From Escherichia coli (GTDB lineage Bacteria; Pseudomonadota; Gammaproteobacteria; Enterobacterales; Enterobacteriaceae): 34,186 bases of DNA. The stretch lies in assembly GCA_003321845.1 (NCBI GenBank), contig GCA_003321845.1_3917.1; one strand, 5' to 3'. The notes under the pieces are model-generated. The model was not told the DNA's origin, did no database searches, and saw nothing but the letters and a program-made list of their open reading frames with translations. A program made the translations under genes and the position numbers. Every line of letters starts with the position of its first letter. Within the stretch, counting starts at the first letter, position 1. Below are positions 1 to 34,186 of the stretch, piece by piece.

Positions 1-4157
<4,157 letters not shown>

Positions 4158-8590: not shown

Positions 8591-8611
8591 TAATAACCCT
8601 CCTTAAGAATA

Positions 8612-9715: not shown

Positions 9716-9748
9716 TGTAAAATTCTCCAGAATGTCTTATTATTGTTA

Positions 9749-10126: not shown

Positions 10127-10137
10127 TATTGTGTTCC

Positions 10138-11484
10138 TTATTTGATAAGAGATTTTAGAGCATTCTGGAGAGCCAGTTTGCGTTGTTCAGCGGTGTCTTC
10201 GGAAGCATTCTTAGCTGGTTCTTTTTCTTCTTCAACCAAATCAGCTTCGCCGTCATTACCCACTTCTTCCATAGCATTAGAATGTTCAAGAACAGCACCA
10301 GCAGTTTCTTTCAGCTTGGTAATTTCTGATTCTTTTTCTTCCATTGCAGAAGCATGGGACGCGATAGTTTCATTAAGTTTCTGGTTAGCACCTTCCATAG
10401 CATTCATAAACAGAACACTCAGAGGGTTATCAAGACCAGCACCTAAAATAGTCGTTGCAGCTTCTTTTGCATCAAATCCAAAAGCTTCAGCAGAAGCAGA
10501 AATCTTATTAGTCAAATCTGACAAAGCAGCTTCCTGTTCTTTAGCTTTCATTTGAGCAACCTGAAGACGCAAAGCTTCTAGTTCTTGCTTTTCTTGTTCA
10601 GTCATTTCTTCACCTGAATTGTTAACGTTTAAACTTACAGGAGCCTCTTCAGAACCTTGTAAGTAATTTAAGAAATCATCTTGAGACATGATTGAGTTAA
10701 TTAAACCAAGTTCAAGAGCTTCCTGAGCAGAATAAACATTCGCCTCAGTATTCTTTACAGCTTCTTCAGAGAGATTACGGGATTCAGCTACAAAACCTGT
10801 AAAGGTTGCGTAGGTATCATTAATTCTCTTTTGAAGTCTTTCTTTGCTTTCTTCTGAAAGTGCTTGGAATGGTGAACCCATACCTTTAAACTCACCAGCT
10901 TTGATGACGTTAATTGTTACGCCATTCTTTTCAAATGCCTTAGTTAATTCCTGATGAACCATGATTACACCGATAGAACCAACATCTGCATCTGGTGATG
11001 CAATAATTTCTTCAGCAGAAGATGCAAGCGCATATGCAGCGGAACAAGCGAACTCATCTACATAAGCAATAATTTTCTTTTGGCCTCTTGAAGCCATGAT
11101 ATGACGTGCTAATTCAAAGCAACCTGAAGCTTCACCACCACCAGAATCAATATGCAGAACAATAGTCTTAATTGACTCATCTGCTAAAGCTTCGTCAAAG
11201 CCTCTGCGTAAACCTTCATAAGAGCTTAAACCACCTGTACACATTGCATCAATGAATGTCATACGGTGAGTTAAACCACCCATAATAGGGATAATAGCAA
11301 TATCATCTTTTACTTTTAAAAGACTTCTTGCTTCACCTTTAGGTTTATCAAAGTTTACTGCTGCTTGGACATCACCCAGCAATCTGTTATTCACATAAGT
11401 TGCTGCTGAGTGAGCTAATGATTCAGTGGCTAGTAAAGGTTGGTTGAATAATCTATCAGCAAGTCTGAAGATATTCGAACTCAT
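10138..11484 (-). CDS. Prohead protease (S49/ClpP-like) fused to scaffold-like C-terminal domain
   Basis: N-terminal half has S49-type motifs (IVLHIDSGGGEASG; catalytic-Ser context EFACSAAYALASSA). C-terminal ~150 aa is acidic and coiled-coil-like (EQEKQELEALRLQVAQMKAKEQEAA), as in scaffolds. Lies between portal and capsid genes. Confidence 0.75.
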   Translation of the reverse strand: MSSNIFRLADRLFNQPLLATESLAHSAATYVNNRLLGDVQAAVNFDKPKGEARSLLKVKDDIAIIPIMGGLTHRMTFIDAMCTGGLSSYEGLRRGFDEALADESIKTIVLHIDSGGGEASGCFELARHIMASRGQKKIIAYVDEFACSAAYALASSAEEIIASPDADVGSIGVIMVHQELTKAFEKNGVTINVIKAGEFKGMGSPFQALSEESKERLQKRINDTYATFTGFVAESRNLSEEAVKNTEANVYSAQEALELGLINSIMSQDDFLNYLQGSEEAPVSLNVNNSGEEMTEQEKQELEALRLQVAQMKAKEQEAALSDLTNKISASAEAFGFDAKEAATTILGAGLDNPLSVLFMNAMEGANQKLNETIASHASAMEEKESEITKLKETAGAVLEHSNAMEEVGNDGEADLVEEEKEPAKNASEDTAEQRKLALQNALKSLIK

Positions 11485-11495
11485 TTTTACTCACC

Positions 11496-11828
11496 CTATT
11501 TGTTTAAATCTACAGAGACTGAAGAGATAACATAGATACCTTCTTCAGCAAAGAATTGAGGTTTGCTAAGAGCACCAGTTGCCACGCATTTATCGTTAGC
11601 ATCCCACAAGCTATAGTGTGAGACCGTTGCAGAAGCTGGAACAGTAATATTAACTGTGTCTTCTGAGGCAATTAAGCCATTATCCGGTTCAGAAAAATAA
11701 ATAGCCACTGGCTGAGTAACCTTATTTGCTGTAGGGTCTGCCGTTGGGTCTACATTGTGTAAAATAATAGTCGTTGGGGTTAGCGTGGCGAGGATTTTAT
11801 TCTTACCATCAATAGTTAATGTTCCCAT
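11496..11828 (-). CDS. Hypothetical protein
   Basis: 110-aa ORF between portal and protease genes, stop/start coupled. Confidence 0.5.
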   Translation of the reverse strand: MGTLTIDGKNKILATLTPTTIILHNVDPTADPTANKVTQPVAIYFSEPDNGLIASEDTVNITVPASATVSHYSLWDANDKCVATGALSKPQFFAEEGIYVISSVSVDLNK

Positions 11829-12328
11829 TAATTAAACCTTACTTTTTGTTTAAGGACTGTTGAATGGTTACCAGATTCATCTACCACATTTACAATCATA
11901 TCATATACTTTACCTTTGACAAGTACTTTGTAATCATTTTGTGAAAAAATGTATTCAAGTCTGTTTGTTTCTTTATTAACTGTCATTGGAGATTGAAATG
12001 CAGTATCGAGGGTAATGAAAGCGGCTTCAATGCTATTGACATTGATACGTTTATTCTCGCAGTTATATAACTTTACACCCAAAAGGCATGAACTGTCAAA
12101 TGGAATTTTAACAATTTCACTACAATTTCCTGAAATAAACGATTTTCCACTCATTGGTGCATCAAGTAACCTGCAAATAGTGAAAACGTCAGAGATTCCA
12201 CCATCACTAACATAACCTGAAAGGCTGACCCTTGAGCCAGCCTCTACAGATAACTTGTCAGTGATGATAAGGACACCCCTATACGAATGCACTCGTGTAG
12301 CATTTGAAATAGAGATAACTTCAGCCAT
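11828..12328 (-). CDS. Hypothetical protein
   Basis: 166-aa ORF, start overlaps the portal stop (ATGA-type coupling). Confidence 0.5.
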   Translation of the reverse strand: MAEVISISNATRVHSYRGVLIITDKLSVEAGSRVSLSGYVSDGGISDVFTICRLLDAPMSGKSFISGNCSEIVKIPFDSSCLLGVKLYNCENKRINVNSIEAAFITLDTAFQSPMTVNKETNRLEYIFSQNDYKVLVKGKVYDMIVNVVDESGNHSTVLKQKVRFN

Positions 12329-13803
12329 TATTTATTTGCCTTATTTGCTGTGCTTGGGTCTTTCGCTGAAGGTGTCTTTGCAGTACCTTCTCCAGCGGTC
12401 TTATAACCATCTCCTGAGCGGCTTTGGCTATTTGGAGAAAGCTTTTCAGATACTGGCTGAGACTCATCAGCAGGAGGAAGACCAATATGCTCTCTAAGTT
12501 TGTTAGATAGCTCTTTGTCAACTTCCAAAGCACCTACTGCAACAGTCTTCTGAATATAAGAACCAATTGCTTCAAGGTCTGGAGTTTCGATATCATCATA
12601 TGTGATTTGTACATGTTCTTCATCATCCCACATATTAAGAGCATAAGTCTGTGCAACTAAATCACGGTTAATTACGTTCTTAATTTGCTTCAGCAGAATA
12701 TCTACTGACATTGCTAATAGGCTTGTCTTAGAATCTGCAAGAGAGAATGAACCATATTTTGACTGACCCATAGCAAGAACATCTGACATAAATGCCATCA
12801 TAATTTGCTTGGAATATCTGTCAATGATAGAACCTGTATCATATGCTTTAGCACCCTGTCTAGAAACTAATGAGAACTCAAAGATATCCTCTTTAGTATC
12901 TGGGTCGATATATCTAGGCCAGATTAAACCTGCTCTGTCATTAGCAATCATGTCATTAACAACAGTTTTGCAGTATTGTACGAAAGCTTTCTTTTCAGGT
13001 TCTGCATTTTCATCCAGATAGTCTGGTGGTAAACCAATCTTTGGCATACCTACTAAGTCTCTTGAAACACCAACAGCTTCATACTCTTCAATCTGTACTT
13101 TATATTTCCACGGTACATAAGCATTAAGTAATGGTGAACGACCTTCTGGATTTCCATATTCATCGTCATACTTAAATAGCATGAATTTAGCTCGTGGAAG
13201 TTTTCTTGTTAGAGGTCTCTCTCCAAGATTGATTGCTCCAGCAATATGTGAAACATTTCTTAGATTCTGTCTAACACCAGTAACTTTTCTAAAGTCTTCG
13301 TCAAAATACCACTTATCAAGTGTTGACTGGTTTCGGATTGGTAATTTAGCCCACCCAATTAGACCATCGTCAAATTTTGACTGGTACTTTCCTTTTTTAC
13401 CCTGACGTTTCTTATAAACCTTTTCGTTAACACAGAACCCATAAGTGCAGAATGACATTACAGAGTTAATAAAATCTGCCCAATCATGCTCCATGTCATC
13501 CATTAAAGAATTAAAGAAGTCTGCTCTTTCAAGCATTTTAGGGTCTTGCTCTTTTCCATTTGGAGGTACGAATCTCCAGTTGACTTTTCTGACAAACATC
13601 TTAATAATATTTACAGATGCTGCTACAGCAGGGTCACGCATCATTAATTGGAAAGTTTTAATACTTTCAGGGAACCTTAGTGCCTGACGAGGTTCTTCAT
13701 AGATTCTTCCATTCTTAACCTTCAGACCCAAAGAACCTACTTCACCCATTCTAAATGGTGGTAAGCTTTCTTGTGTTTCTGTAATATCTGCCATTCTTCT
13801 CAC
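12328..13803 (-). CDS. Portal protein
   Basis: 491-aa ORF immediately downstream of the large terminase gene and upstream of the protease/scaffold; canonical position and size. Confidence 0.7.
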   Translation of the reverse strand: MRRMADITETQESLPPFRMGEVGSLGLKVKNGRIYEEPRQALRFPESIKTFQLMMRDPAVAASVNIIKMFVRKVNWRFVPPNGKEQDPKMLERADFFNSLMDDMEHDWADFINSVMSFCTYGFCVNEKVYKKRQGKKGKYQSKFDDGLIGWAKLPIRNQSTLDKWYFDEDFRKVTGVRQNLRNVSHIAGAINLGERPLTRKLPRAKFMLFKYDDEYGNPEGRSPLLNAYVPWKYKVQIEEYEAVGVSRDLVGMPKIGLPPDYLDENAEPEKKAFVQYCKTVVNDMIANDRAGLIWPRYIDPDTKEDIFEFSLVSRQGAKAYDTGSIIDRYSKQIMMAFMSDVLAMGQSKYGSFSLADSKTSLLAMSVDILLKQIKNVINRDLVAQTYALNMWDDEEHVQITYDDIETPDLEAIGSYIQKTVAVGALEVDKELSNKLREHIGLPPADESQPVSEKLSPNSQSRSGDGYKTAGEGTAKTPSAKDPSTANKANK

Positions 13804-13810
13804 CTAGCTA

Positions 13811-15427
13811 TCAACGTCTAAGCCCCTCATATGGGTTTCCTCTCACTAAGTCTGTGTGAGCACCCATTGATGGTGGCTTGAATAATTTAACTTCGTTAAG
13901 ACTGTTGAAAGCATCACTGGTAGCATCCACTTGGTCATCTTTAGTTTTACCATCACCACAAAAACCTTCAAGTTCTTGGAAGTAAGCTTCATTCCAACTA
14001 CCTCTCAAGACTTTTACAAGTCCAGCTTCAGAAGCAGCAGAAAACCCCGCAAATCGGGTAACTTTATCTTTATTTGTTGGTTTAGCTCTTGCTCGATAAC
14101 CTTTCTCGGCAAGTTTCCTGATGAGGGATGTTGCGTAGGATTTACCAGCAGCGCCTGGGTCTTGAGGGATAAAAATACCAGTTCGCTTACCGTCACTTTC
14201 AGCAGTCAAATTAATTTGTGTTTCGACTCCAGAGGGTCTATCTCTAAATCTTACTACATCAATGATATAATAGCAACCGTCTTTTTTAGATTTACCCATC
14301 TTAACACCTGCTGTCCAGTCTGGATTAGGGTTAATCTCAGATGGTAAAGTTGCTGCTAAGTCCCATGCTCTGACATCGAATACATCTTCTGGGAGTGAAT
14401 CAACAATTTCACACCATTGTCTTTGCCAATAGTTTGAACCTTCTGCACGAGCCTTCCAGTTACCGAAACGAAGTCTTGCAACGTTTACAGGAGTGTTGTT
14501 TTCCAACTTACCGCGATACTTTGGTTCTAAGAAGTCAAGAATTGGGTTATCATCAATCGTACCAGAGATGAATGTATATGTTTGAGGAATCTCAAGAGGA
14601 AACATTTCAAGAATCTTGTCTCTCTCCCAATCAGAAACCATAACACCATCATTCATTACATACCAACGAATACGACCACACTTTTCAGGGTCTGGGTAAC
14701 CTTCTTCATCTAAGAATGGTTCTACCCAATCGTAAATGAAGTGGTCTCTGTCTGGGTTCATAGAAATCTTCATGTATGAATCACCTTCAGCCCCAGAACG
14801 TAGACGAGTCTGTAGGTATGAAATCTGTGAAGCAGAGAAGTGTGTACCTTCGTCAAAGTAAATAGCTGAGTATTCAATACCCTGATGACCTTCAGCGTGC
14901 TTTTCAAGTTCTAGATAGGTAAACTTGATAGTTGCCCCAGAAGGGAATGTGATAGTCATCTTCTGCTCGTGAGGAACCCCACCAAACTTACCAAATAGTT
15001 TCTTTGCAGCAGGCCATAAACCACCTTGTAACTGTGTTGTATTTCGACGGAAATATACAGCATTATAATTAGGGTCGTCAATAAACCTTAAAGAGTCCAT
15101 TAACAATGCAGCAGTCTTACCAGCACCCGCAGCACCACCATAGAGAACCAAGTCAGCATTAGTATTTAAAAAGACCTCTTGAGAACCCGGCTGAGGGGCT
15201 ACATAGTTCTTATCAGTCATCAATTTGAAGATAAGTCTAACTTGGTCTGGTGTGTATCTTAATAAAGTCAGAATTTGAGTTGGAAGGAATTTAGAGGGGT
15301 CTTTACCGAATGATTTGATAATTTCTTTTACTTCATCAGAAAGCCCCAACTCTCCAGCTAGGACTTTCCTAACATCTTCCACTCGCTTCTGCTTAACAGC
15401 ATTTAAGTCCATTAAGCACCTCCGCAA
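13811..15427 (-). CDS. terL: Terminase large subunit
   Basis: 538 aa; Walker A P-loop LYGGAAGAGKTAAL near the N-terminus, acidic nuclease-like C-terminal half, directly upstream of the portal gene. Confidence 0.8.
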   Translation of the reverse strand: MRRCLMDLNAVKQKRVEDVRKVLAGELGLSDEVKEIIKSFGKDPSKFLPTQILTLLRYTPDQVRLIFKLMTDKNYVAPQPGSQEVFLNTNADLVLYGGAAGAGKTAALLMDSLRFIDDPNYNAVYFRRNTTQLQGGLWPAAKKLFGKFGGVPHEQKMTITFPSGATIKFTYLELEKHAEGHQGIEYSAIYFDEGTHFSASQISYLQTRLRSGAEGDSYMKISMNPDRDHFIYDWVEPFLDEEGYPDPEKCGRIRWYVMNDGVMVSDWERDKILEMFPLEIPQTYTFISGTIDDNPILDFLEPKYRGKLENNTPVNVARLRFGNWKARAEGSNYWQRQWCEIVDSLPEDVFDVRAWDLAATLPSEINPNPDWTAGVKMGKSKKDGCYYIIDVVRFRDRPSGVETQINLTAESDGKRTGIFIPQDPGAAGKSYATSLIRKLAEKGYRARAKPTNKDKVTRFAGFSAASEAGLVKVLRGSWNEAYFQELEGFCGDGKTKDDQVDATSDAFNSLNEVKLFKPPSMGAHTDLVRGNPYEGLRR

Positions 15428-15433
15428 ATAGAA

Positions 15434-15634
15434 TTATTCAGAGTCTGTAGCAGTCTCTTCTTTCTTAACTTCGAACTTTGCATCAACAGCATCAAGAAGT
15501 GCATCCATAGACGCTTCTTGAATATCAATACCTGTTGCTACAGATAATCTGTCTGCAATTGCCATGATAGTATTCTGCATAAATTCTAGCTTCTTGTTAG
15601 CTTCATAAAGTTCTTTATAAACGGTCTCGCTCAT
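15434..15634 (-). CDS. Small hypothetical protein upstream of terL
   Basis: 66-aa ORF with GGAG 8-9 nt upstream of the ATG; too small for a typical small terminase. Confidence 0.45.
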   Translation of the reverse strand: MSETVYKELYEANKKLEFMQNTIMAIADRLSVATGIDIQEASMDALLDAVDAKFEVKKEETATDSE

Positions 15635-15670
15635 TATGTTTTCTCCAAATAATTAACCATGTTTCCCCTT

Positions 15671-15694
15671 AAAAAAGACGGTACAGAGACCGTC
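15671..15694 (-). terminator. Intrinsic terminator at the 3' end of the tRNA array
   Basis: Plus strand aaaaaa-gacggt-acagag-accgtc: a 6-bp stem followed by a U6 run when read on the minus strand, between tRNA-Cys and the packaging genes. Confidence 0.5.
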
Positions 15695-15856
15695 AAGGAG
15701 AAACCACAATGTACGTCAGAGACATACTGTATAAGTCTTCTTATAAAGTATAACTCTGTAAAAAAGCCCTGTCTAAAAATACTCTTCGGTAGCGAAAGGA
15801 AGAATACTTATAGCAGGGCATTATTATTATTTTAATTGAGAGAGAGTAAAATAACT

Positions 15857-15933
15857 TGGAGAATCCGAAGGGACTCGAACCCTTATAAACCTGTTTTGCA
15901 GACAGGCACATAGCCATTTCTGTCACGGATTCA
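15857..15933 (-). tRNA. tRNA-Cys (anticodon GCA)
   Basis: Hand-folded: encoded CCA, perfect 7-bp acceptor (gaatccg/cggattc), T-arm aaggg-actcgaa-ccctt, anticodon stem cctgt/acagg, loop reads CU-GCA-AA. Confidence 0.75.
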
Positions 15934-15936
15934 AAT

Positions 15937-16029
15937 TGGAGGAAGATACCAGACTTGAACTGGTACACCGATTTCTCAGCTACTGGCAGTTTAGCAAACT
16001 GCTCCCTTACCTTTTAGGGTTAATCTTCC
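15937..16029 (-). tRNA. tRNA-Ser (anticodon GCT), class II
   Basis: Encoded CCA, acceptor ggaagat/atcttcc, T-arm accag-acttgaa-ctggt, ~21-nt variable arm, anticodon stem gcagt/actgc, loop UU-GCU-AA. Confidence 0.75.
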
Positions 16030-16030
16030 A

Positions 16031-16765
16031 TTATTTCTGTAATGCGTTCTTCATTTCTGGTGTTGCAATAGTATCAATTACACCAGTTTTACAAGCATCA
16101 TCAAACCAGTCTGGTAAGATACCTGCTAAGAACCCATTGATATTCGTTTTAAGGTACTCTGCAATAAGAGCAGCTTCTTCTTCAATCATCTGCACAACTT
16201 CATCTGCATAAGCTGTAATCTTCGAAATACCTTCATTAATCTTACTAACAGCTTGGTTAGCTAAATCAGAAATAGTATCAAGACCTTTGTCAATAGCGTC
16301 TTGTAAGTCACTTAATACATCATTAACACCATCTAGAGCGCTGTTAATCGTATCCATAGCTTTTTGACCATACTCTGTAGCAACACCCATAATACCACTA
16401 AACGGTGTACAGCCAACTTGCTCTCCTGCTGCACCCATAACATTAGAATAACCTTTTGCTACCTGCATACGTGAGGAAAACTCATCAATGGACTTTTGAC
16501 CGTAATCCGTCAGCGTTTTGGTAGTTGATGTAGTGCTTGTCAGACTCGTTGTAAAGCTGTTAAGCAGAACTGTTGTAAGTCCAGCAGCAACAAGTTTATC
16601 TTTTATTGTAGGGTCTGTTACAGAGCTAATAGAGCTTACAAGTGATGTAGAGGCAGCTACGGTTCCACCGAGAACTGCTGCACCAGTAATAAGGGGATTA
16701 GAGAACCCTTTACCGGTTTTTAAGAGATTAAAAATCTCCTTACCTTGTTCTGTCATCTCTTTCAT
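16031..16765 (-). CDS. Hypothetical protein encoded inside the tRNA array (possible membrane or coiled-coil protein)
   Basis: ORF track gives 16031..16828 with a GTG start lying inside the tRNA-Phe anticodon arm. The first ATG (MKEMTEQ, at 16765) has AAGGTG 5 nt upstream and is the likelier start. Hydrophobic Gly/Ala segment followed by Ser/Thr-rich and acidic helical regions. Confidence 0.5.
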   Translation of the reverse strand: MKEMTEQGKEIFNLLKTGKGFSNPLITGAAVLGGTVAASTSLVSSISSVTDPTIKDKLVAAGLTTVLLNSFTTSLTSTTSTTKTLTDYGQKSIDEFSSRMQVAKGYSNVMGAAGEQVGCTPFSGIMGVATEYGQKAMDTINSALDGVNDVLSDLQDAIDKGLDTISDLANQAVSKINEGISKITAYADEVVQMIEEEAALIAEYLKTNINGFLAGILPDWFDDACKTGVIDTIATPEMKNALQK

Positions 16766-16781
16766 TAAGCACCTTTGAAAT

Positions 16782-16858
16782 TGGTAGTCCAGTGGGATTT
16801 GAACCCTCTTCTCATGTTTTTCAGACACGCGCTTTAACCATATAAGCTACTTGGACTA
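16782..16858 (-). tRNA. tRNA-Phe (anticodon GAA), slightly atypical
   Basis: Perfect acceptor tagtcca/tggacta, T-loop atttgaa with one T-stem mismatch, anticodon loop CU-GAA-AA. 3' CCA register is ambiguous. Confidence 0.55.
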
Positions 16859-16863
16859 TAAAT

Positions 16864-16939
16864 TGGGGTGACCTACGGGATTTGAACCCGTATAGACCAT
16901 GTTCACAGCATGGGTCATTACCATTTATGATAAGGCCAC
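16864..16939 (-). tRNA. tRNA-His (anticodon GTG)
   Basis: Encoded CCA, acceptor with one G-U pair, T-arm acggg-atttgaa-cccgt, anticodon stem ccatg/catgg, loop CU-GUG-AA. Confidence 0.7.
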
Positions 16940-16970
16940 ATTTAAGGACTCTCGTAAGAACCCTTAGAAG

Positions 16971-17046
16971 TGGCAGCGGCATAAGGATTTGAACCTTAAT
17001 AAGACAGCTTCAGAGACTGCTGCATTGCCAGTTATGCTATACCGCT
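16971..17046 (-). tRNA. tRNA-Gln (anticodon CTG)
   Basis: Encoded CCA, T-arm taagg-atttgaa-cctta, anticodon stem with two G-U pairs, loop CU-CUG-AA. Confidence 0.6.
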
Positions 17047-17051
17047 AAATT

Positions 17052-17130
17052 TGGTACTCCATATCGGATTCGAACCGATACATAACACAGATTTTAAGTC
17101 TGGCCTCTCTGCCAATTGGAGTAATGGAGC
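17052..17130 (-). tRNA. tRNA with anticodon TAA (formally Leu) but short variable arm
   Basis: Encoded CCA, discriminator A, T-arm atcgg-attcgaa-ccgat, anticodon loop CU-UAA-AA. Variable region only ~7 nt, i.e. class-I geometry, unusual for a Leu anticodon. Confidence 0.5.
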
Positions 17131-17131
17131 A

Positions 17132-17206
17132 TGGTACTCACTAAAGGACTTGAACCTTTTTCTTCATCTTGTAAGGGTGGTGTTTTACCATATAAACTAA
17201 GCGAGT
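17132..17206 (-). tRNA. tRNA-Val (anticodon TAC), tentative
   Basis: Encoded CCA, acceptor actcact/agcgagt with one G-U, T-arm aaagg-acttgaa-ccttt. Anticodon stem is imperfect; loop reads CU-UAC-AA. Confidence 0.5.
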
Positions 17207-17302
17207 GTGAAAGAGGTCTGAAGTTGTGCCGCTAACTCAACTCCGTGGAATTTGTTACGGTCTTCAGTTGACTCAAAGCGGTCTTTCACTTGACCTCTAA
17301 AT

Positions 17303-17378
17303 TGGTGCTCCCACAAGGATTCGAACCCTGATAAGTTGCTTACAAGGCAACCGTAATAGCCAATTATACGATAGGAGC
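17303..17378 (-). tRNA. tRNA-Thr (anticodon TGT)
   Basis: Encoded CCA, T-arm caagg-attcgaa-ccctg, perfect anticodon stem gttgc/gcaac, loop CU-UGU-AA. Confidence 0.75.
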
Positions 17379-17385
17379 ATTAATT

Positions 17386-17460
17386 TGGAGCATCCAGAGG
17401 GAATCGAACCCTCAACCTCAGTTTGGAAGACTGTAATTTTCCCGTTTAAACTATGGATGC
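17386..17460 (-). tRNA. tRNA-Gly (anticodon TCC)
   Basis: Encoded CCA, perfect acceptor gcatcca/tggatgc, T-arm gaggg-aatcgaa-ccctc, loop CU-UCC-AA. Confidence 0.7.
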
Positions 17461-17466
17461 ACTAAT

Positions 17467-17542
17467 TGGTGGAGTCACTGGGAATTGAACCCAGTTCCCA
17501 AGTTTGCAAAACTCGAATTTTAACCATATAAACTATGACCCC
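17467..17542 (-). tRNA. tRNA-Ala (anticodon TGC)
   Basis: Encoded CCA, acceptor ggagtca/tgacccc including a G-U pair, T-arm ctggg-aattgaa-cccag, loop UU-UGC-AA. Confidence 0.7.
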
Positions 17543-17548
17543 ATTGTT

Positions 17549-17624
17549 TGGTACAGGTGGAGGGAATTGAACCCATCGTCTTACTGATTAAGAGTCAGCC
17601 GCATAACCATTTTGCTACACCTGC
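17549..17624 (-). tRNA. tRNA-Lys (anticodon CTT)
   Basis: Encoded CCA, acceptor acaggtg/cacctgc, T-loop aattgaa with a 3-bp effective T-stem (same backbone as the Lys-TTT gene), loop CU-CUU-AA. Confidence 0.6.
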
Positions 17625-17631
17625 ATTAATT

Positions 17632-17709
17632 TGGTAGGAGACAAGGGATTCGAACCCTCAAACACCAACTTCTAAGGATGGTAGGTTTACCAATTACCGT
17701 CAATCTCCC
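17632..17709 (-). tRNA. tRNA with anticodon TAG (formally Leu) but short variable arm
   Basis: Encoded CCA, discriminator A, T-arm aaggg-attcgaa-ccctc, anticodon loop CU-UAG-AA with one A-A mismatch in the stem; class-I length (~78 nt). Confidence 0.5.
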
Positions 17710-17961
17710 ATTAAATCTTTTTAGAGAACTTCTAAGAACCTAAGCAACAAGGTTCCACAACAAGCTGTAATAACCTTAGAAGCCCTCTAAAAAGACCTAA
17801 TTTGGTCTTTGCATAGTCTTGTTTAATCCGGTGACTAGAACCTTTGGAGAGCTTGATATTATCTCTTCTCCGTGACACCTACTAGGTGCTTTATCAGTGT
17901 ACGACAATACACGAGGGATAAACCGAAAATGCGAGCAAGCATGGACGGTGTAAATCTTATT

Positions 17962-18052
17962 AGGCGGTAAGTAAAGGAGTCGAACCCTCACCGTATCTCT
18001 ACAGTGGCAACAGTTTTCAAGACTGTTTGGCTGCCATTAGCCGCTACCTACC
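17962..18052 (-). tRNA. tRNA-Ser (anticodon TGA), class II
   Basis: Perfect 6-bp anticodon stem aacagt/actgtt with loop CU-UGA-AA, ~20-nt variable arm, acceptor ggtaagt/acctacc, discriminator G. T-stem has two G-U pairs; CCA not fully encoded. Confidence 0.55.
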
Positions 18053-18065
18053 CCTAATAAGATTT

Positions 18066-18148
18066 TGGCATGGGACGGAGGAGTTGAACCCCTTTGAAAC
18101 GGTTTTGGAGGCCGTTGCTCATGCCTTAGAGTCTTAACATCGTCCCAT
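18066..18148 (-). tRNA. tRNA, probably Trp (anticodon CCA), atypical length
   Basis: Encoded CCA, perfect acceptor atgggac/gtcccat, T-loop agttgaa, anticodon hairpin acggc/accgt with loop CU-CCA-AA. About 7 extra nt in the D-arm region. Confidence 0.45.
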
Positions 18149-18291
18149 ACTGTAATTCGAAGCTTACCGTATTTTCACAACACTGTAAAGCCCCTTCTCA
18201 GATTATTTACATGTTCTGGAAAACATGAGATACAGACCACCTCCTTACACGGAGACCCGATAAGGTCGTCTAAGCAATCTGCTAACTAAAT

Positions 18292-18373
18292 TGGTCGAGG
18301 CGGCAGGACTCGAACCCGCATACTCCACTTACTCGGTTAACGGCGGTTTAGAAGACCGCTGAGATACGCCCCG
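18292..18373 (-). tRNA. tRNA-like element (anticodon-like loop TCT, Arg?) with degenerate D-arm
   Basis: Encoded CCA, acceptor cgaggcg/cgccccg, T-arm gcagg-actcgaa-cccgc, perfect hairpin gcggt-ttagaag-accgc giving CU-UCU-AA. Only ~7 nt where the D-arm should be and ~23 nt between the T-arm and that hairpin. Confidence 0.4.
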
Positions 18374-18667
18374 TAATTATCTTTAAAGACTCTCTGAGAA
18401 AGCCCTTAAAGATGCCCACATTATTAATCATACCGTGGGCTAGTACGCCAAATTCTTTGATGAGGGGTTGGAAGACCTCACTGGTGTTTAGCCTATCAAG
18501 CTACTGCCAGAAAAACATTGTCGTTTGCATTTATTTTAAATTTACAAAATAGACGCTACGCAACGAAAACTATTCAGAATATGTACAACAAATTTCCCCA
18601 CATTGTGTTACGTCTAACGCTCATGTCTTGGTGTTTGAATTATACATATGCTGAATCATTTTCAGTT

Positions 18668-18696
18668 ACTATAAAGTAGTCACATCTCAATGTCAA
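18668..18696 (-). promoter_or_regulatory. Candidate sigma70-type promoter internal to the tRNA array
   Basis: Minus strand reads TTGACA, 17 nt, TATAGT (plus-strand tgtcaa at ~18691 and actata at ~18668); it would drive the lower half of the array. Confidence 0.45.
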
Positions 18697-18711
18697 CAAC
18701 TTTATTGAAAT

Positions 18712-18785
18712 TGGTTGTAGGTGAGGGTATCGAACCCTCTTCTAACGGTTATCAGCCGTTTGCATTACCATTTATGCTAACCCAC
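18712..18785 (-). tRNA. tRNA-Ile (anticodon GAT)
   Basis: Encoded CCA, T-arm gaggg-tatcgaa-ccctc, perfect anticodon stem aacgg/ccgtt, loop CU-GAU-AA. Confidence 0.75.
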
Positions 18786-18788
18786 AAT

Positions 18789-18865
18789 TGGAGGTTCAGA
18801 TGGGAATCGAACCCACATCCATAGGGCTTATGAAACCCCTGCATTACCTTATCTGCGACTGAACC
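18789..18865 (-). tRNA. tRNA-Met (anticodon CAT; could be elongator Met or Ile2)
   Basis: Encoded CCA, perfect acceptor ggttcag/ctgaacc, T-arm atggg-aatcgaa-cccac, loop UU-CAU-AA. Confidence 0.6.
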
Positions 18866-18943
18866 ATAATAAGTACCCTAGTTAGAGAAACTATTGAGTG
18901 GGTGTTTCCAGCCGCGCAGGTGTTTCTCAGTTAAGGGTGAATT

Positions 18944-19019
18944 TGGTAGAAGTGGAGGGATTCGAACCCATCGCCTGTCAGATTAAAAGTCTGCCGCATC
19001 ACCATTCTGCTACACTTCC
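18944..19019 (-). tRNA. tRNA-Lys (anticodon TTT)
   Basis: Encoded CCA, acceptor agaagtg/cacttcc, T-loop attcgaa, anticodon stem caga/tctg, loop CU-UUU-AA. Confidence 0.65.
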
Positions 19020-19024
19020 ATTAA

Positions 19025-19167
19025 ATTATCTTTGTAGATAAGCTACCCAGACTTGCTTAAGGTCTGTAGCGATGTGCCTTTTTGGGTTTAAATCTAGAAT
19101 TTACCCTTTCACCCTTTGTGGTCGCATACTCACAGGTAAGCTTAATAACTTATCTACAAAGATAATT
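19025..19167. repeat. Perfect 18-bp inverted repeat (attatctttgtagataag / cttatctacaaagataat) enclosing ~107 nt
   Basis: Read directly from the sequence; arms at ~19025-19042 and ~19150-19167 within a tRNA-free stretch of the array. Predicts a long stem-closed structured RNA or a DNA cruciform. Confidence 0.6.
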
Positions 19168-19216
19168 ACCAGACCGTTGTTTATCATCTTAAGTGCTACC
19201 ATTACACCAACTCGAC

Positions 19217-19245
19217 ATCTGCCGAGTGAAGGAATCGAACCTTCG
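19217..19245 (-). other. Orphan tRNA T-arm-like hairpin (tRNA fragment or tRNA-like module)
   Basis: gaagg-aatcgaa-ccttc is a perfect T-arm mimic with an acceptor-like 7-mer beside it, but no matching 5' acceptor strand, D-arm or anticodon arm could be found. Confidence 0.3.
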
Positions 19246-19477
19246 CCTTTTCTTTACCGGAGAAATAGATTGTTTAAAGTTTGCTGTAAACGGTCTTCTG
19301 TAAATTTGTTGAGCCAGACCAAGTTTTAAATTTTTTCAAAATTAAATTGGCTTGAAAATTTCATACGTACTTGCTGAATTTGGTCTTCTGCTCCTTTAAA
19401 GAATACTCGTAAGAACTCTTTAAGGGAGGGGCTAAATAGCCCTCTCAAAACATCATTTTGAAATACTTATTATAATT

Positions 19478-19555
19478 TGGCGGTTACGAAGGGATTTGAA
19501 CCCTCATCATCTCCCGTGACAGGGGAGTATTTTAACCAGTTAAACTACATAACCT
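19478..19555 (-). tRNA. tRNA-Asp (anticodon GTC)
   Basis: Encoded CCA, T-arm aaggg-atttgaa-ccctc, perfect anticodon stem ctccc/gggag, loop CU-GUC-AC. Confidence 0.75.
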
Positions 19556-19560
19556 TTATT

Positions 19561-19648
19561 TGGTGTGCCGTGTAGGAGTCGAACCTACCGAGTCTCAATG
19601 ACAAGGGATTTACAGTCCCCACCGCTACCATCTACGGGATAACGACAC
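19561..19648 (-). tRNA. tRNA-Tyr (anticodon GTA), class II
   Basis: Encoded CCA, T-arm gtagg-agtcgaa-cctac, ~15-nt variable arm, anticodon stem aggga/tcccc, loop CU-GUA-AA. Confidence 0.7.
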
Positions 19649-19717
19649 ATTTAATTTCTATTCAGGCTAAGGACTTGCACCTTACAAATCGGTGAGCAAT
19701 CGCTTCTCTCCTAAATT

Positions 19718-19794
19718 TGGCGGTTAGTCAGGGATTCGAACCCTGTGCCATTCGCTTAACAGGCGACCGCACATACCTTATGTGCTTCCTAACC
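19718..19794 (-). tRNA. tRNA-Asn (anticodon GTT)
   Basis: Encoded CCA, T-arm caggg-attcgaa-ccctg, anticodon stem tcgc/gcga, loop CU-GUU-AA. Confidence 0.7.
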
Positions 19795-19871
19795 TTAATA
19801 CATTGCCAGACCGTGTTTTTTCTTTTATCCGCAAAAAGTATTTTGTTGCTGAATACGGTCTTCTGCAAAAT

Positions 19872-19948
19872 TGGAGGCGGGTGCAGGAGTCGAACCTACC
19901 GATACCATGCTAATGAGACATGTGAGACGCCCTTTCTCTATACCCGCA
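19872..19948 (-). tRNA. tRNA-Met (anticodon CAT), possible initiator
   Basis: Encoded CCA, T-arm gcagg-agtcgaa-cctac, D-stem gaga/tctc, anticodon loop with CAT. The 1:72 acceptor pair is mismatched, as in bacterial initiator tRNA. Confidence 0.55.
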
Positions 19949-20039
19949 ATTCTTAATGACCAGACCAAATCTCTTCTTTGTCCGATTTACCTTCAGATGA
20001 ATAAGATTAAGTTTGCTGCAATTGGTCTTCTGTCAAAAC

Positions 20040-20117
20040 TGGCGTTCCAGAAGGGATTTGAACCCTCAAATATCCACTTTGAAAGAGTGGCGACTTTACC
20101 GTTTTGTCTACTGGAAC
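20040..20117 (-). tRNA. tRNA-Glu (anticodon TTC)
   Basis: Encoded CCA, perfect acceptor gttccag/ctggaac, T-arm aaggg-atttgaa-ccctc, perfect anticodon stem ccact/agtgg, loop CU-UUC-AA. Confidence 0.75.
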
Positions 20118-20124
20118 ATTAATT

Positions 20125-20201
20125 TGGTCTCTGTTGGAGGACTTGAACCTCCGGCCTTACCGCCCCAAACGGAACGCTCTACCAAGCTGAGCTAAACAGA
20201 G
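20125..20201 (-). tRNA. tRNA-Pro (anticodon TGG)
   Basis: Encoded CCA, perfect acceptor ctctgtt/aacagag, perfect T-arm ggagg-acttgaa-cctcc, anticodon loop UU-UGG-GG. Confidence 0.65.
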
Positions 20202-30885: not shown

Positions 30886-30895
30886 AATATCTTAA

Positions 30896-30925
30896 GAGCC
30901 TCCTTAATCGGGGGGCTTTTTAATT
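30896..30925 (+). terminator. Intrinsic terminator at the end of the plus-strand operon
   Basis: agcctcc-ttaatcg-gggggct stem-loop followed by tttttaattttt. Confidence 0.55.
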
Positions 30926-32490
30926 TTTATAAAATTTTATCGGTTGTCCCAACCTCTGGGTCACCATCATATGTGAATAAAATATCTACCCTTCTTAACA
31001 ACCTTCTTAATCTTACTCTCTATATAGTTATATAGTACTATATAGTATCTTAGTATCTATCTAGTGGTCTTAATAGCCCCTCTGTATAGCCCTTCTAAAC
31101 ACTCTTCTAACAAGCCTTCTTAACAACCTATACAATCACCTTAACCATTCCTCTACACACTCTTAGAAGCTCCTATACACCTCTTAATCTCTAGGTAAGC
31201 TATGATACCCTCTATAGGTGTTCACTAGGGAATACTAAGCCTCTATATAGACTGTTTTAACAAACTTAACAGGAATATCTTTACAGACCTTATCTCACAA
31301 GGTCTAACACGGTACTAACAAGGTATCTTATAAGCCTGTTTATGCCTGTATTTTTAAAAGACTGTCTAGGTAATTATTCAGAATTTTAAAATTTTTATAA
31401 AATAGGACTATCAAGTCATTTTTTAGGGTCTTTGAAGGAACTGAAAAATATCTGTAGAGTTGATTCGGTAGAATCTACCTCATGATGTATATCTGCTTGG
31501 TAGCCCTTAACATCCCTGTAACATCCCCTTTGCAGAATTTTAAAATATCCTTAACAATCTCTTAACAACTCTCTCAACCTCTTAACATCTCTTCAGAGGT
31601 CTTAACAGACTCTTAACAGAACTAACAAGGCTGTAACAAGTTCTTAACAGTCGATACATGGTCTTTACAGAAGCTTAACAGATGACTAACAAGAACTAAC
31701 AAGTTAATTTTTAAGAGTTATTTTGTTAAGATAATTAACAAGTTCCTAACAAGTGTTTAATCTTTTTAACAAGCTGTTAACACGGTCACTATCTCTTTCT
31801 TATCGTTCCCTTTCCCCTCTTAGTGATTCTCTAAACATACCTCTTAAAAGCTCTCTATAGCTCCTTGTAAGCTCTTTTAAGCCTCTTCCTAGTAATTACA
31901 CCCCAACTGTACAGATACCTTTTTATAGGGCTTTACAGAAGCTTTAAAGGCTATGTCAAAGACTCTTACAAGGCTTTTACGTGGTCTTAACAGAGATTTA
32001 ACAAGGGGCTAACAAGTTGCTAACAAGTGCCTTAAAAGCATAACTATGTAGGGATTGTTAAGAAATTGTTAAGAAAATGTTAAGGGGGCTAGCATTTACG
32101 TAACTTTATAGCCTCTTTCACGTAACTTTGAAGTAACTTTATAGCCCCTAAAACATACTTTTAAGACACAAACAAGCCCTTTTTAGATATTCACAAGATA
32201 ACTAACGAGATGATAAAGCTTACACCCTTATAAGATTCTTTTAAGGCTGTAGGAAGCTTTATAAAGAGCTTTTAAGGGTGAGTTAATGCAATCCCTTAAG
32301 TTAGGTTGATAAGGCTGTTATAGAACTTTATAGAGCGTTTAAACGGTTGCCCTTCCCTTTCGGGTTATGGGCTTATATTTAAGTTGATTTGATAAGAGTT
32401 TATAGAGTAGACTATAGAGTTATTGCTTTTAAGGTCTGGTAAGATTCTAGGGAGGAAAGGAAAGGGATTGTATAGAGGCTATTACATAGA
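30926..32490. repeat. ORF-free 1.6-kb iteron region (putative replication origin or regulatory hub)
   Basis: No ORF of 60 aa or more on either strand. Dozens of CTTAACA(A/G) / CTAACAAG repeats at ~10-12-bp phasing (densest ~31540-31790 and ~31980-32030), inverted copies TTGTTAAG x3 (~32055-32085), TATATAGT x3 (~31020-31050) and GTAACTTTA x3 (~32100-32150). Confidence 0.7.
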
Positions 32491-32491
32491 C

Positions 32492-32520
32492 GTAAAAAAG
32501 CCCCTATGAGAAGGAGCTTT
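32492..32520 (-). terminator. Intrinsic terminator downstream of the minus-strand small-gene cluster
   Basis: Minus strand reads AGCUCC-UUCUCAUA-GGGGCU followed by a U6 run (plus-strand aaaaaa at ~32494-32499). A second perfect hairpin ggggc-tattt-gcccc lies at ~32531-32545. Confidence 0.5.
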
Positions 32521-32555
32521 AAAGGTATCTGGGGCTATTTGCCCCGTTGCGTCGA

Positions 32556-32804
32556 TTAGTTGTAACCTTGTTTATTGTAGTACAGGGAGACAATCAAGTC
32601 ACCCCAGTAATGATAGTGATGCTCGTCGTTTAATGCCTCCTTTACAGCGTCTTTCCAGAAGTCATCAGTAGGGTTATAATCTGGGATAACTTGCTTGATA
32701 ACTGTCTTCACTAATGAAAAGCATTCATCAGTTCCACCGATATCAAATTTAACGTCCAGAGTATAACAGCCATAAGCATTGACAGTTGCGCGGATAGTTG
32801 CCAT
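32556..32804 (-). CDS. Hypothetical protein
   Basis: 82-aa ORF immediately preceded by the conserved leader box. Confidence 0.55.
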   Translation of the reverse strand: MATIRATVNAYGCYTLDVKFDIGGTDECFSLVKTVIKQVIPDYNPTDDFWKDAVKEALNDEHHYHYWGDLIVSLYYNKQGYN

Positions 32805-32828
32805 TTTTTGAATCTCCAGTTTAGGATT
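32805..32828 (-). promoter_or_regulatory. Conserved leader box, copy 1 (minus strand ATCCTAAACTGGAGATTCAAAAA-ATG)
   Basis: Identical ~23-nt sequence immediately upstream of three different start codons; contains the GGAG ribosome-binding site. Confidence 0.6.
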
Positions 32829-32893
32829 TTACTTAGTGGGGAAGGTCATTCCCTCCCCGTTGATTAGTAATTTACTTGTTTTAAAAACCAAAA

Positions 32894-33226
32894 TCAAGAG
32901 AAATTTTTTCGTTTGTTCAGTTCTTGGACAATTACAGTGTAATAGTCTTTTAAGTCACTGATATTTAAAGCATTTATCAGAGAGTTATAATCATCGACAA
33001 GCTGGAAATCATCTTTAAAAATGTCACTGATTTGATAAGTTCTCGATTTAAATCTGAAGCTCATTTCTAGCCGCTTTATTTGCTCATCACTTAAACGCTC
33101 TAGAAAGCTTATTACAAGGCTATTATTAACCTGTTGGGTGATTGCCTTACTTGCCAGATTATAGGCACTATAAGCCTTGTATAGTGCTATAATGGCGATG
33201 ATTGCAGTGATACCCATCATTAACAT
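32894..33226 (-). CDS. Hypothetical protein with N-terminal hydrophobic segment
   Basis: 110-aa ORF; N-terminus MLMMGITAIIAIIALYKAY looks like a membrane anchor or signal; start overlaps the upstream gene. Confidence 0.55.
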   Translation of the reverse strand: MLMMGITAIIAIIALYKAYSAYNLASKAITQQVNNSLVISFLERLSDEQIKRLEMSFRFKSRTYQISDIFKDDFQLVDDYNSLINALNISDLKDYYTVIVQELNKRKNFS

Positions 33227-33516
33227 AGTGCTTCCTCTTTGCGTGACACTTTGCCATTTACAGTTATCTCATAAGAATCTAGTAAATCACTTTCAGACTT
33301 AACAGGACTTTTACAAGTATCATCATAAACATTAATTTGCAATACAGGCTTTTTATACTCCCTGCAACTATTCCATAAGCAAATCACTACACGACGGCCT
33401 TTTATTTTGCCGTGTAACCATTCCATAACATCATGACTATTTCTTGATATCTCGATAAAATCAATTTTGTTGAGTAACTTGCTTAGGTTTTCGCGGACTT
33501 TATTTGATAATTTCAT
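33220..33516 (-). CDS. Hypothetical Cys-containing small protein
   Basis: 98-aa ORF preceded by the conserved leader box. Confidence 0.55.
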   Translation of the reverse strand: MKLSNKVRENLSKLLNKIDFIEISRNSHDVMEWLHGKIKGRRVVICLWNSCREYKKPVLQINVYDDTCKSPVKSESDLLDSYEITVNGKVSRKEEALC

Positions 33517-33570
33517 TTTTGAATCTCCAGTTTAGGATAGTTGATAAATCTCTTTATCTGGGGCTATCTT
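33517..33570 (-). promoter_or_regulatory. Conserved leader box, copy 2, plus upstream box AGCCCCAGATAAAGAG
   Basis: Plus strand ttttgaatctccagtttaggat ... ctctttatctggggct; the same two boxes recur at 34116-34160. Confidence 0.6.
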
Positions 33571-33707
33571 AACAGCTTGATAACCCCGTGTAAAGAAATC
33601 TATTTAGTTCTTAAAGATATTCATCACTGAATCTTTTAATGCTTCCAAGCGTTCTAATACTTCAGATTCTGCGTCTGCGTTGTTCACTTCCTCTTTTAGT
33701 CTACCAT

Positions 33708-34115
33708 CTAAATCATCGCCGTCACTGTAGCACCAATCGAAAGCGTAACCAATATAAAACTCTCTAAAACCGTGTTACCGTTTGTATCGACAACTTTCGC
33801 GGAGATGTTATATTCTGAAGCCTCTAAATCTCTTTCTAGTTCTTTCTGTAAGCTGATGTAAGCCTCTTTTGATGGGTTTTCCCGGCCTTGTTTTGCATAG
33901 TCACTTGAAAGCTGTTTAAGGCTGTAATGTAAAGGGATTGCATATTTAAATTCATTACGCTGACAGTTATGATTTTTAACAGTCACACCGCCTTGATGGT
34001 CATTTGTAAATTCCCAATTATCAAGATTATGGCTTGCTTCAAAGCAATTAACAGCTTCGTAAATGATGGAAAATTTTTCTTTTACAACTTCAAAGGTAGC
34101 GTCTACAGTTTTCAT
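33708..34115 (-). CDS. Hypothetical protein
   Basis: 135-aa ORF preceded by the conserved leader box. Confidence 0.55.
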   Translation of the reverse strand: MKTVDATFEVVKEKFSIIYEAVNCFEASHNLDNWEFTNDHQGGVTVKNHNCQRNEFKYAIPLHYSLKQLSSDYAKQGRENPSKEAYISLQKELERDLEASEYNISAKVVDTNGNTVLESFILVTLSIGATVTAMI

Positions 34116-34165
34116 TTTTGAATCTCCAGTTTAGGATTTAGTGGTAAAGCTCTTTATCTGGGGCT
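34116..34165 (-). promoter_or_regulatory. Conserved leader box, copy 3, plus upstream box AGCCCCAGATAAAGAG
   Basis: Plus strand ttttgaatctccagtttaggat ttagtggtaaag ctctttatctggggct; near-identical to copy 2 with a variable 11-12-nt linker. Confidence 0.6.
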
Positions 34166-34186
34166 TACTTTACCGAACTATAAGCC

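Follow-up and report, generated by a model that had tools for sequence, protein, structure and literature searches.

A promoter, hairpin and leader repeated before the small-gene modules of a Felix O1-like phage appear to form a portable expression cassette

A repeated element of ~90-110 bp, very probably a portable expression cassette composed of a host-type promoter, a hairpin and a leader, stands before each module of a single cluster of small genes in the DNA considered here. This DNA (the window) is a stretch of 34,186 nucleotides from an Escherichia coli assembly (GCA_003321845.1, contig GCA_003321845.1_3917.1). It stems from a Felix O1-like myovirus (Ounavirinae), the best matches being Felixounavirus genomes with 88-93% identity. 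The cassette resembles the promoter-early stem-loops (PeSLs) of T4-like phages (Arbiol et al. 2010, PMC2839356; Comeau et al. 2014, PMC4122927). Read from 5' to 3', it would consist of an A-tract (~-47 to -42), a TTGACA-like hexamer or TTTACA, exactly 17 bp, the -10 element TAnnnT, a G/C hairpin and the leader, and it would serve a module of one or two genes. The right-hand end of the window cuts into the small-gene cluster, leaving three cassettes that are the tail of a longer series; in annotated relatives, the cluster comprises 8-18 small genes on one strand, with spacers of ~60-100 nt. What is said below on the function of the cassettes is drawn from sequence.

The most conspicuous part of the cassette is a leader box of 23 nucleotides, ATCCTAAACTGGAGATTCAAAAA, present in three exact copies on the minus strand, at 32805-32827 (copy 1), 33516-33538 (copy 2) and 34115-34137 (copy 3). 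A search of the window at up to 3 mismatches gave no further copy, nor did 100 shuffles contain one, chance expectation being none. Copy 1 abuts the ATG at 32802-32804, and in copies 2 and 3 the final A of the 23-mer is the A of the ATG (33514-33516 and 34113-34115, respectively). Each box carries a Shine-Dalgarno (SD) sequence, GGAG (32814-32817, 33525-33528 and 34124-34127), at a distance of 8-9 nt from the ATG, and GGAG and ATG are arranged likewise throughout the census of relatives described below. The original prediction had noticed this box before three minus-strand genes and had held its conservation to be regulatory, as the proteins are not paralogs. Indeed, the three open reading frames (ORFs), of 82, 98 and 135 amino acids, belong to different BLASTP families at E<=1e-5, and the conservation is regulatory, not coding. 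The leader box is best read as a shared 5' untranslated region with a standard ribosome-binding site, which would provide each unrelated gene with the same strong translation start.

The exact 23-mer is dispensable: all eight Felix O1 leaders differ between SD and ATG. In the copies from enteric phages the near-constant part is CT(T)AAACT(A)GGAG, which, followed by ~8 A/T-rich bases and the ATG, would make up the common leader. The dominant variant differs by lineage, being GGAGATTCAAAAATG, GGAGAATCTAAAATG or GGAGAATCTGAAAATG, as judged from a table of variants; ungapped identity is blurred by 1-nt length differences in the A-run. That of the Erwinia phage phiEa21-4 is distinct (...CCCTTATAAAGGAATC...). 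Such lineage-specific variants fit a homogenisation among the copies within a lineage. Within the leader, TCC can pair with the GGA of the SD to form a mini-hairpin of 3-4 bp (window 32814-32825, 33525-33536 and 34124-34135), and the L2 leader variant and phiEa21-4 could pair in a comparable way. The SD is predicted to be unpaired with a probability of only 0.19-0.28, and the TCC/GGA helix is too weak to interpret.

The motif was also sought beyond the window, and it is not an artefact of local duplication. In BLAST searches, each of the two types of cassette described below is present in 252 phage records, with several copies apiece, nearly all of them Felix O1-like. Outside the Felix O1-like records, both types were matched only in one record named Staphylococcus phage SA1 and in one Campylobacter phage record. 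An nhmmer census counted 118 copies in 11 genomes. Three of these are in the window (34 kb searched; the cluster ends at the window end) and the relatives sampled contain 6-18 each: NRG857CP1 has 6 copies (40 kb searched), Felix O1 8 (whole genome), Alf5 9 (17.5 kb), Sf15 9 (10.8 kb, the cluster being cut by the record end), VpaE1 10 (18 kb), AYO145A 12 (first 17 kb; the leader precedes 12 genes), SUSP2 13 (20 kb), Henu11 14 (18 kb), Mordin 16 (18 kb) and Michonne 18 (18 kb). With a diverged version in the Erwinia phage phiEa21-4 (see below), the family extends over the genera Felixounavirus, Mooglevirus, Suspvirus and Kolesnikvirus.

This repeat family is confined to one cluster. All eight Felix O1 copies lie at 8423-12057 (3.6 kb, ORF15-23), and none is found in the remaining ~80 kb of the 86-kb genome. 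In a scan of IMG/VR with the core of the second box, multi-copy loci were confined to contigs of 53-90 kb, mostly 81-90 kb; single-copy matches were left out, their number being close to chance for a 15-mer by a rough estimate. Diverged cassettes are found in SUSP2 and in phiEa21-4. The latter phage carries its own diverged set at 9700-16500, with the hairpins GGTG...CACC and GGGGTTAT...ATAACCCC and with a leader, CCCTTATAAAGGAATCAAAACATG, in which the SD is AAGGA instead of GGAG. This set would be a good outgroup for the evolution of the cassette.

Pieces of the cassette have been recorded before under various names. The Felix O1 paper lists, without comment, direct repeats of 57 bp and 39 bp that are parts of cassettes. 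The AYO145A record carries promoter features at three of its twelve cassettes, the Mordin record 14-nt 'repeat_region' features and the KhF3 record a 'terminator' label; existing records are thus inconsistent, a given piece being a 'repeat_region', a 'terminator', a 'promoter' or nothing. The wV8 paper does not mention promoters and repeats, and no paper mentioning both PeSLs and Felix O1 was found in the searched literature. A description of a PeSL-type architecture for the Ounavirinae was not found, only these fragments in Felix O1-like records.

Cassettes of type A precede copies 2 and 3 of the leader box. Their order is CTTTACA, one base, GGGG...(a loop that holds the -10)...CCCC, AGATAAAGAG, C/ATTTA... 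and the leader. The type-A core of copy 2 is complete (33544-33603, minus strand) and was delineated by promoter scan, fold and covariation. A sigma-70 scan tool reports the -35 hexamer TTTACA (33589-33594), a 17-nt spacer and the -10 hexamer TAAGAT (33566-33571) with an upstream TG; the predicted start site (+1) is the A at 33559. In the predicted hairpin, an upper stem is formed by GGGGTTATC (33579-33587) with GATAGCCCC (33560-33568) and a lower stem by ATAGATTTCTTTA (33591-33603) with TAAAGAGATTTAT (33544-33556). The cassette of copy 3 (34145-34186, minus strand) has lost its 5' part at the window end; full-length equivalents exist in AYO145A and NRG857CP1. It retains an incomplete 5' arm GGCTTA (34181-34186), the -10 hexamer TAAAGT (34167-34172; predicted +1 at the A at 34159, the -35 falling beyond the window end), the 3' arm TAAGCCCC (34160-34167) and the 3' strand of the lower stem, TAAAGAGCTTTA (34145-34156).

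The second box is accounted for by this structure. It is a 16-mer, AGCCCCAGATAAAGAG, found at 33550-33565 and 34150-34165; these sites precede the leader boxes of copies 2 and 3 by 11 and 12 nt, respectively, as had been noted before. To judge from the predicted elements, it is the 3' arm of the hairpin (AGCCCC, the promoter discriminator) joined to AGATAAAGAG, which would be nucleotides +1 to +10 of the transcript.

The cassette of copy 1 is of type B, with the order -35, 17 nt, TAAATT, 7 nt, AACGGGGAGGGAATGACCTTCCCCACTAA... and the leader. Its core (32838-32909, minus strand) starts with the A-tract AAAAAA (32904-32909). The -35 hexamer TTGATT (32892-32897) overlaps the stop codon TGA of the upstream gene and is separated by a 17-nt spacer from the -10 hexamer TAAATT (32869-32874); the predicted +1 is the A at 32861. 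Here the hairpin follows the promoter: GGGGAGGG (32851-32858) pairs with CCTTCCCC (32838-32845) over 8 bp, at ~+4 to +24 of the predicted transcript, about 3 nt from its 5' end.

These elements are conserved in the manner of a promoter. An initial census covered 73 copies (the later nhmmer census is the one with 118), and the best -35/-10 pair had a 17-nt spacing in 73/73, with a nearly constant register relative to the hairpin, although the scan favoured 17 at ties and a few copies gave an out-of-register pair. All 32 distinct type-A cores share TTTACA and the first two bases, T-A, of the -10 element; its last T differs in one core only. The three middle bases vary freely (TAAAGT, TATCTT, TAGTAT, TAAGAT, TACCAT, TATGAT), and this TAnnnT conservation is the pattern expected of a working -10 element. 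Type B provides the most independent test, as its -35 is not part of the repeat but of the ends of the unrelated genes upstream. A TTGACA-like hexamer is found exactly 17 nt from the -10 in 20/21 such upstream contexts (<=75% identical), the mean match to the -35 being 4.86 of 6 at the 17-nt offset versus <=3.05 at any other. Upstream of the type-B -35 there is an A-tract, at ~-47 to -42, the expected location of a proximal UP element.

The promoter of the cassette appears to be one of host sigma-70 architecture, and a phage-specific promoter would not be needed. Host RNA polymerase would initiate at every cassette, probably soon after infection. In the table of reverse-transcription PCR data for Felix O1, expression is highest at 5 min for the cluster ORFs 16, 20, 21 and 22 and at 25 min for ORFs 17, 19 and 23; no cluster ORF has its maximum at the late time point.

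The hairpin, too, is conserved as a structure. The copy 2 fold has an energy of -27.9 kcal/mol (z = -4.6). Over 25 distinct type-A hairpins, stem positions 1-9 are paired in 92-100%, versus only 20-24% for positions 10-11. Changes on both sides of the stem occur at positions 7 (T-A/A-T), 8 (A-T/T-A) and 9 (A-T/T-A/C-G). The upper stem, in which these three pairs change on both sides, is 98.2% paired as against 83.6 +/- 1.8% in shuffled sets, none of 500 reaching the observed value. On the far side of a 3x3 internal loop, the -35 region (ATAAAGT.CTTTA) pairs with box 2 (TAAAG.GCTTTA) in a further helix of 5 + 6 bp, which shows one G-C/T-A swap. The full bipartite structure of ~20 bp is 97.4% paired versus 89.9 +/- 0.6% after shuffling (0/500), and sliding the partner strand lowers the pairing to <=56%. 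RNAalifold, applied to the same alignment, predicts 19/20 of these pairs with a consensus energy of -20 kcal/mol. A compensatory change within the G-run is seen in the phiEa21-4 hairpin GGTG...CACC. As for type B, 22/22 distinct hairpins fold, with energies of -8.4 to -15.6 kcal/mol, despite paired indels and replacements of whole stems.

In the type-A structure U.G pairs are frequent or invariant, and their equivalents on the opposite strand are A.C mismatches; it was therefore most likely selected in sense-strand RNA. Since transcription is predicted to begin at the base of the upper stem, the type-A hairpin can form only in RNA that has read through from upstream. In such RNA, the -35 region would pair with +4 to +16, which would lengthen the hairpin to ~20 bp. 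The predicted accessibility of the SD is equal in primary and read-through RNAs. A role of the large hairpin as a translational switch was considered and rejected, since it leaves that accessibility unchanged. Rather, the hairpin would act on the RNA itself, by attenuating, ending or processing read-through or by stabilising mRNA ends, and the modules would thereby be insulated from one another.

A more specific version of this idea is a speculation that we put forward tentatively, namely that type A is a self-insulating promoter. The DNA that fires a new transcript would also make the RNA arriving from upstream fold a ~20-bp helix, which would be cut by an RNase III-like activity or would stall and stabilise the upstream message; RNA started locally has no 5' strand of the helix and would escape. 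If true, this would be a compact natural device rendering modules independent of their neighbours and hence freely exchangeable.

The small genes served by the cassettes in the window form three modules on the minus strand. The first is the gene of family F (33708-34115; Felix O1 ORF16), which encodes 135 aa here and 170 aa in AYO145A and Felix O1. It is shortened by the loss of 1 nt from a T-run (TTTTT to TTTT, window ~33755-33760), and its remainder runs on in another frame to a TAA at ~33613; either this is a real pseudogene or it is a homopolymer sequencing error. The second module (32894-33516) consists of two genes, that of family C (33220-33516, 98 aa; ORF17) and an overlapping gene without its own cassette (32894-33226, 110 aa; ORF18). 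The last is the gene of family A (32556-32804, 82 aa; ORF23). No Pfam family matched any of the four small proteins of the cluster in the window. The cluster probably holds genes for host takeover or anti-defence.

Over the 11 genomes the order of modules is constant, K-I-J-F-C-E-H-O/M-G-P/Q-D-N-B-L-A, and presence or absence varies widely. The window, with F-C-A, has the most reduced right-hand end among them. Differences in gene content have their junctions inside cassettes. Thus, window 34167-32805 aligns to AYO145A genes 17-19 and window 32876-32400 to gene 28. These alignments overlap by 72 nt (32805-32876), inside the type-B cassette; the window phage therefore lacks AYO145A genes 20-27 (eight genes, ~3.6 kb). 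NRG857CP1 has one extra module at the position of this gap. Families D and I are preceded by type A in some genomes and by type B in others. In Michonne (~5130-5300), a duplicated 85-aa module stands beside an empty cassette whose leader and ATG run into the next cassette, and in Mordin (~6530-6611) two type-A cassettes follow each other in tandem without an intervening gene. Both arrangements look like footprints of recombination between cassettes.

This led to the proposal that the 35-70 nt shared between cassettes serve as sites of homologous recombination, by which modules would be deleted, duplicated or exchanged. The three 23-mers of the window would be identical because recombination keeps the copies alike. 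At the end of the cluster, an orphan half-cassette and a terminator lie at 32491-32545 (minus strand, z = -3.45). The hairpin of the half-cassette, GGGGCAAATAGCCCC (32531-32545), is followed by AGATA and stands 3' of the last gene; it is kept in AYO145A and SUSP2 and may be a relic of recombination or a docking point for new modules. The intrinsic terminator, with a T-run, was read from the fold at 32491-32520, having been missed by the terminator scan, and the equivalent site is annotated as a terminator in the AYO145A record.

Several points weigh against the picture of a cassette of promoter, RNA hairpin and leader. In the lower stem of type A only one pair covaries and most pairs never vary, such that this helix is supported mainly by invariant complementarity. 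For the stem alignments, the invariant GGGG and CCCC runs were set as anchors by hand, with N as padding. Common descent and recombination link the cassette copies, and the shuffle statistics given above therefore overstate their independence. Some -35 hexamers are weak (TTGATT in copy 1 of the window, TTGCAA elsewhere). The cassette hairpins are not followed by a U-run, the next bases being AGATAAAG or ACTAAAT, and neither type is a canonical intrinsic terminator; a terminator scan of the window reported none at these hairpins. The Felix O1 expression table is noisy, its 5-min class including the capsid gene and three cluster genes peaking at 25 min, and the genome paper itself describes the initiation and timing of transcription as not known. 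The searchable literature holds no mapped transcript 5' or 3' ends, start sites or RNA-seq data for any Felix O1-like phage; promoter use, start sites and timing are therefore predictions. Selection for a trans-acting factor, and not only concerted evolution, could keep the leaders identical.

Among the alternatives, one makes the hairpin mainly an element of RNA processing or stability, which we regard as possible but on balance unlikely. The ~20-bp helix of type A would be cut by RNase III in read-through RNA; such cuts would separate the mRNAs of the modules and leave protective hairpins at their 3' ends. The type-B hairpin and a small 5' hairpin of the predicted primary transcript of copy 2 would protect 5' ends. 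The two conserved type-A stems, of ~9-11 bp around a 3x3 internal loop, are in keeping with this, as are the lack of a U-run, which speaks against an intrinsic terminator, the start of the type-B hairpin ~3 nt from the predicted 5' end, the U.G pairs that point to RNA and an SD accessibility that does not respond to the hairpin. The argument is one of structural reasoning. Type-B hairpins are too short for RNase III, and a PeSL stem-loop of the T4 type cut reporter expression like a strong terminator, so attenuation is equally plausible.

The leader might additionally be the target of a trans-acting post-transcriptional regulator that shuts off the genes of the cluster together, though we find this doubtful. 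In T4, RegA is a repressor and RegB is a nuclease that cuts within GGAG. The conservation of CT(T)AAACT upstream of the SD exceeds the needs of ribosome binding, GGAG is present in every copy, and lineage-specific variants would be expected if leaders co-evolved with a factor. On the other hand, recombination among the copies can explain their conservation, the segment between SD and ATG differs in 8/8 Felix O1 copies, and no candidate factor was found, the whole proteome not having been screened. A protein of Mordin (gp003, 1239-1787) is labelled 'similar to T4 RegB'. This candidate was discarded: the Felix O1 homologue (3582-4130) gave only a weak match to an SLT transglycosylase (E = 1e-3, below the Pfam cut-off). 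A note in the older Felix O1 record describes this homologue as a protein from the T4 vs-regB intergenic region. The RegB annotation looks mistaken.

A dedicated site-specific recombinase acting on the GGGG...CCCC hairpin as a DNA site, in the manner of attC and with the promoter features being secondary, is very improbable. The modules are indeed bounded by hairpin-containing repeats, and the authors of the PeSL work raised the idea for their own GGGG...CCCC motif. However, the U.G pairs make the structure strand-asymmetric, and at the two junctions read closely (window versus AYO145A and versus NRG857CP1) the exchange lies in the part from hairpin to leader and not in the hairpin alone. That the type of cassette goes with the upstream gene, and the leader variant with the lineage, is in keeping with general homologous recombination; moreover, no integrase is annotated in the Felix O1 record.

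Little credence can be given to the idea, contained in the original prediction, that the two boxes form a phage-specific promoter, recognised by an RNA polymerase or sigma factor that the phage encodes. They are highly conserved, repeated and at a fixed distance from the genes. Nevertheless, neither is a promoter recognition element: both lie at or after the predicted start site, canonical sigma-70 elements with 17-nt spacing are found upstream of or around box 2 and show the expected pattern of conserved positions, and the part from SD to ATG varies freely among Felix O1's own copies. A promoter for a single-subunit RNA polymerase is marked by a conserved block of ~20 bp ending at the start site, which is not seen here. 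Neither a phage RNA polymerase nor a protein altering promoter specificity is reported in the Felix O1 genome paper (2010), and the Felix O1 record likewise has no annotated phage RNA polymerase. Finally, that the repeats are functionless leftovers of a local duplication, or selfish repeats, is next to impossible to maintain: the three window copies do lie within 1.4 kb of each other, but the repeats are found across four genera, at a constant distance from the start codon that follows, with promoter-like TAnnnT conservation and compensatory changes in the stems.

Other features of the window are mentioned for completeness. At the gathering score, Rfam gave 21 tRNA matches in the window and nothing at the cassettes; the 21 tRNA genes are clustered at 15860-20201 on the minus strand. 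Directly beside them, at 20367-21782 (minus), lies the gene of a 471-aa protein with the domains DUF7788 and DUF2828. By its record, Felix O1 ORF42, labelled 'RNA-binding protein', has the same length and position (the two proteins were not aligned). Between convergent terminators, a stretch of 1.6 kb (30886-32555) is free of ORFs and dense in the motif YTAACAR. It accounts for 27 of the 57 matches of the window (within 30995-32072), 24 of them on the plus strand and often at 11-nt intervals; a few copies, at 32055-32072, are inverted. In the fjerdesal record, two repeat_regions are annotated within the YTAACAR-rich stretch. The array looks like a set of protein-binding sites, as in a replication origin, a packaging site or a genome-end region.

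If the interpretation as a promoter-hairpin-leader cassette is correct, the cluster would be transcribed from 6-18 promoters per sampled genome, a set open to testing, in a classic Salmonella-typing phage, whose relatives are widely used in biocontrol. The cassettes would also be natural, expression-ready insertion sites for phage engineering.

Several known systems share part of this design. The host-takeover module of Bacillus phage SPO1 and the early regions of the T-odd phages contain many small genes, multiple strong host-type promoters and strong ribosome-binding sites. The likeness is a block of small genes of unknown function, apparently driven by host-type promoters; to our knowledge, however, the promoters of SPO1 and T-odd phages are not contained in a repeated hairpin-plus-leader cassette and have not been reported as sites of recombination. 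The RNase III sites of T7 are intergenic two-stem hairpins around an internal loop, placed between co-transcribed early genes. They share with type A the two stems and the internal loop between genes, but they are not known to be fused to a promoter or to a common leader. In integrons, promoterless or self-contained genes are bounded by imperfect inverted repeats, the attC sites, that fold into hairpins and form variable arrays, a comparison already drawn by the authors of the PeSL work. Yet integrons need an integrase acting on folded single-stranded attC DNA, and their genes share one common promoter, whereas the present modules each have a putative promoter of their own, no integrase is annotated and the structure looks specific to RNA.

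The closest parallel is with the PeSLs, whose sequence-level features can all be recognised in the cassettes. Both are intergenic cassettes of ~100 bp with an A/T-rich tract, a sigma-70-like -35/-10 promoter and a G-run/C-run stem-loop, which tolerates G.T pairs and varies in position, lying either across the spacer and -10 or just downstream. Both have an SD and a start codon at the 3' end, precede small genes without known function where gene content is variable, and contain the junctions of gene-content differences between close relatives. Unlike the PeSLs, the present cassettes belong to the Ounavirinae and show no BLAST similarity to them, which makes them the same kind of element and not a homologous member. 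In the genomes sampled they are confined to one cluster of 6-18 copies, whereas RB49 and phi1 have ~50 PeSLs distributed among several variable regions; the Felix O1-like leader is much more standardised; and in type A the stem is prolonged by a second helix, formed by the -35 region and the start of the transcript. Promoter activity, terminator activity and the formation of mini-circles have been measured for PeSLs, whereas the Felix O1-like cassettes are known from sequence alone. The PeSL principle would gain a second, unrelated example outside the T4-like phages. If so, this suggests that cassettes of promoter, hairpin and leader are a general way for virulent phages to keep their accessory genes both expressed and exchangeable.

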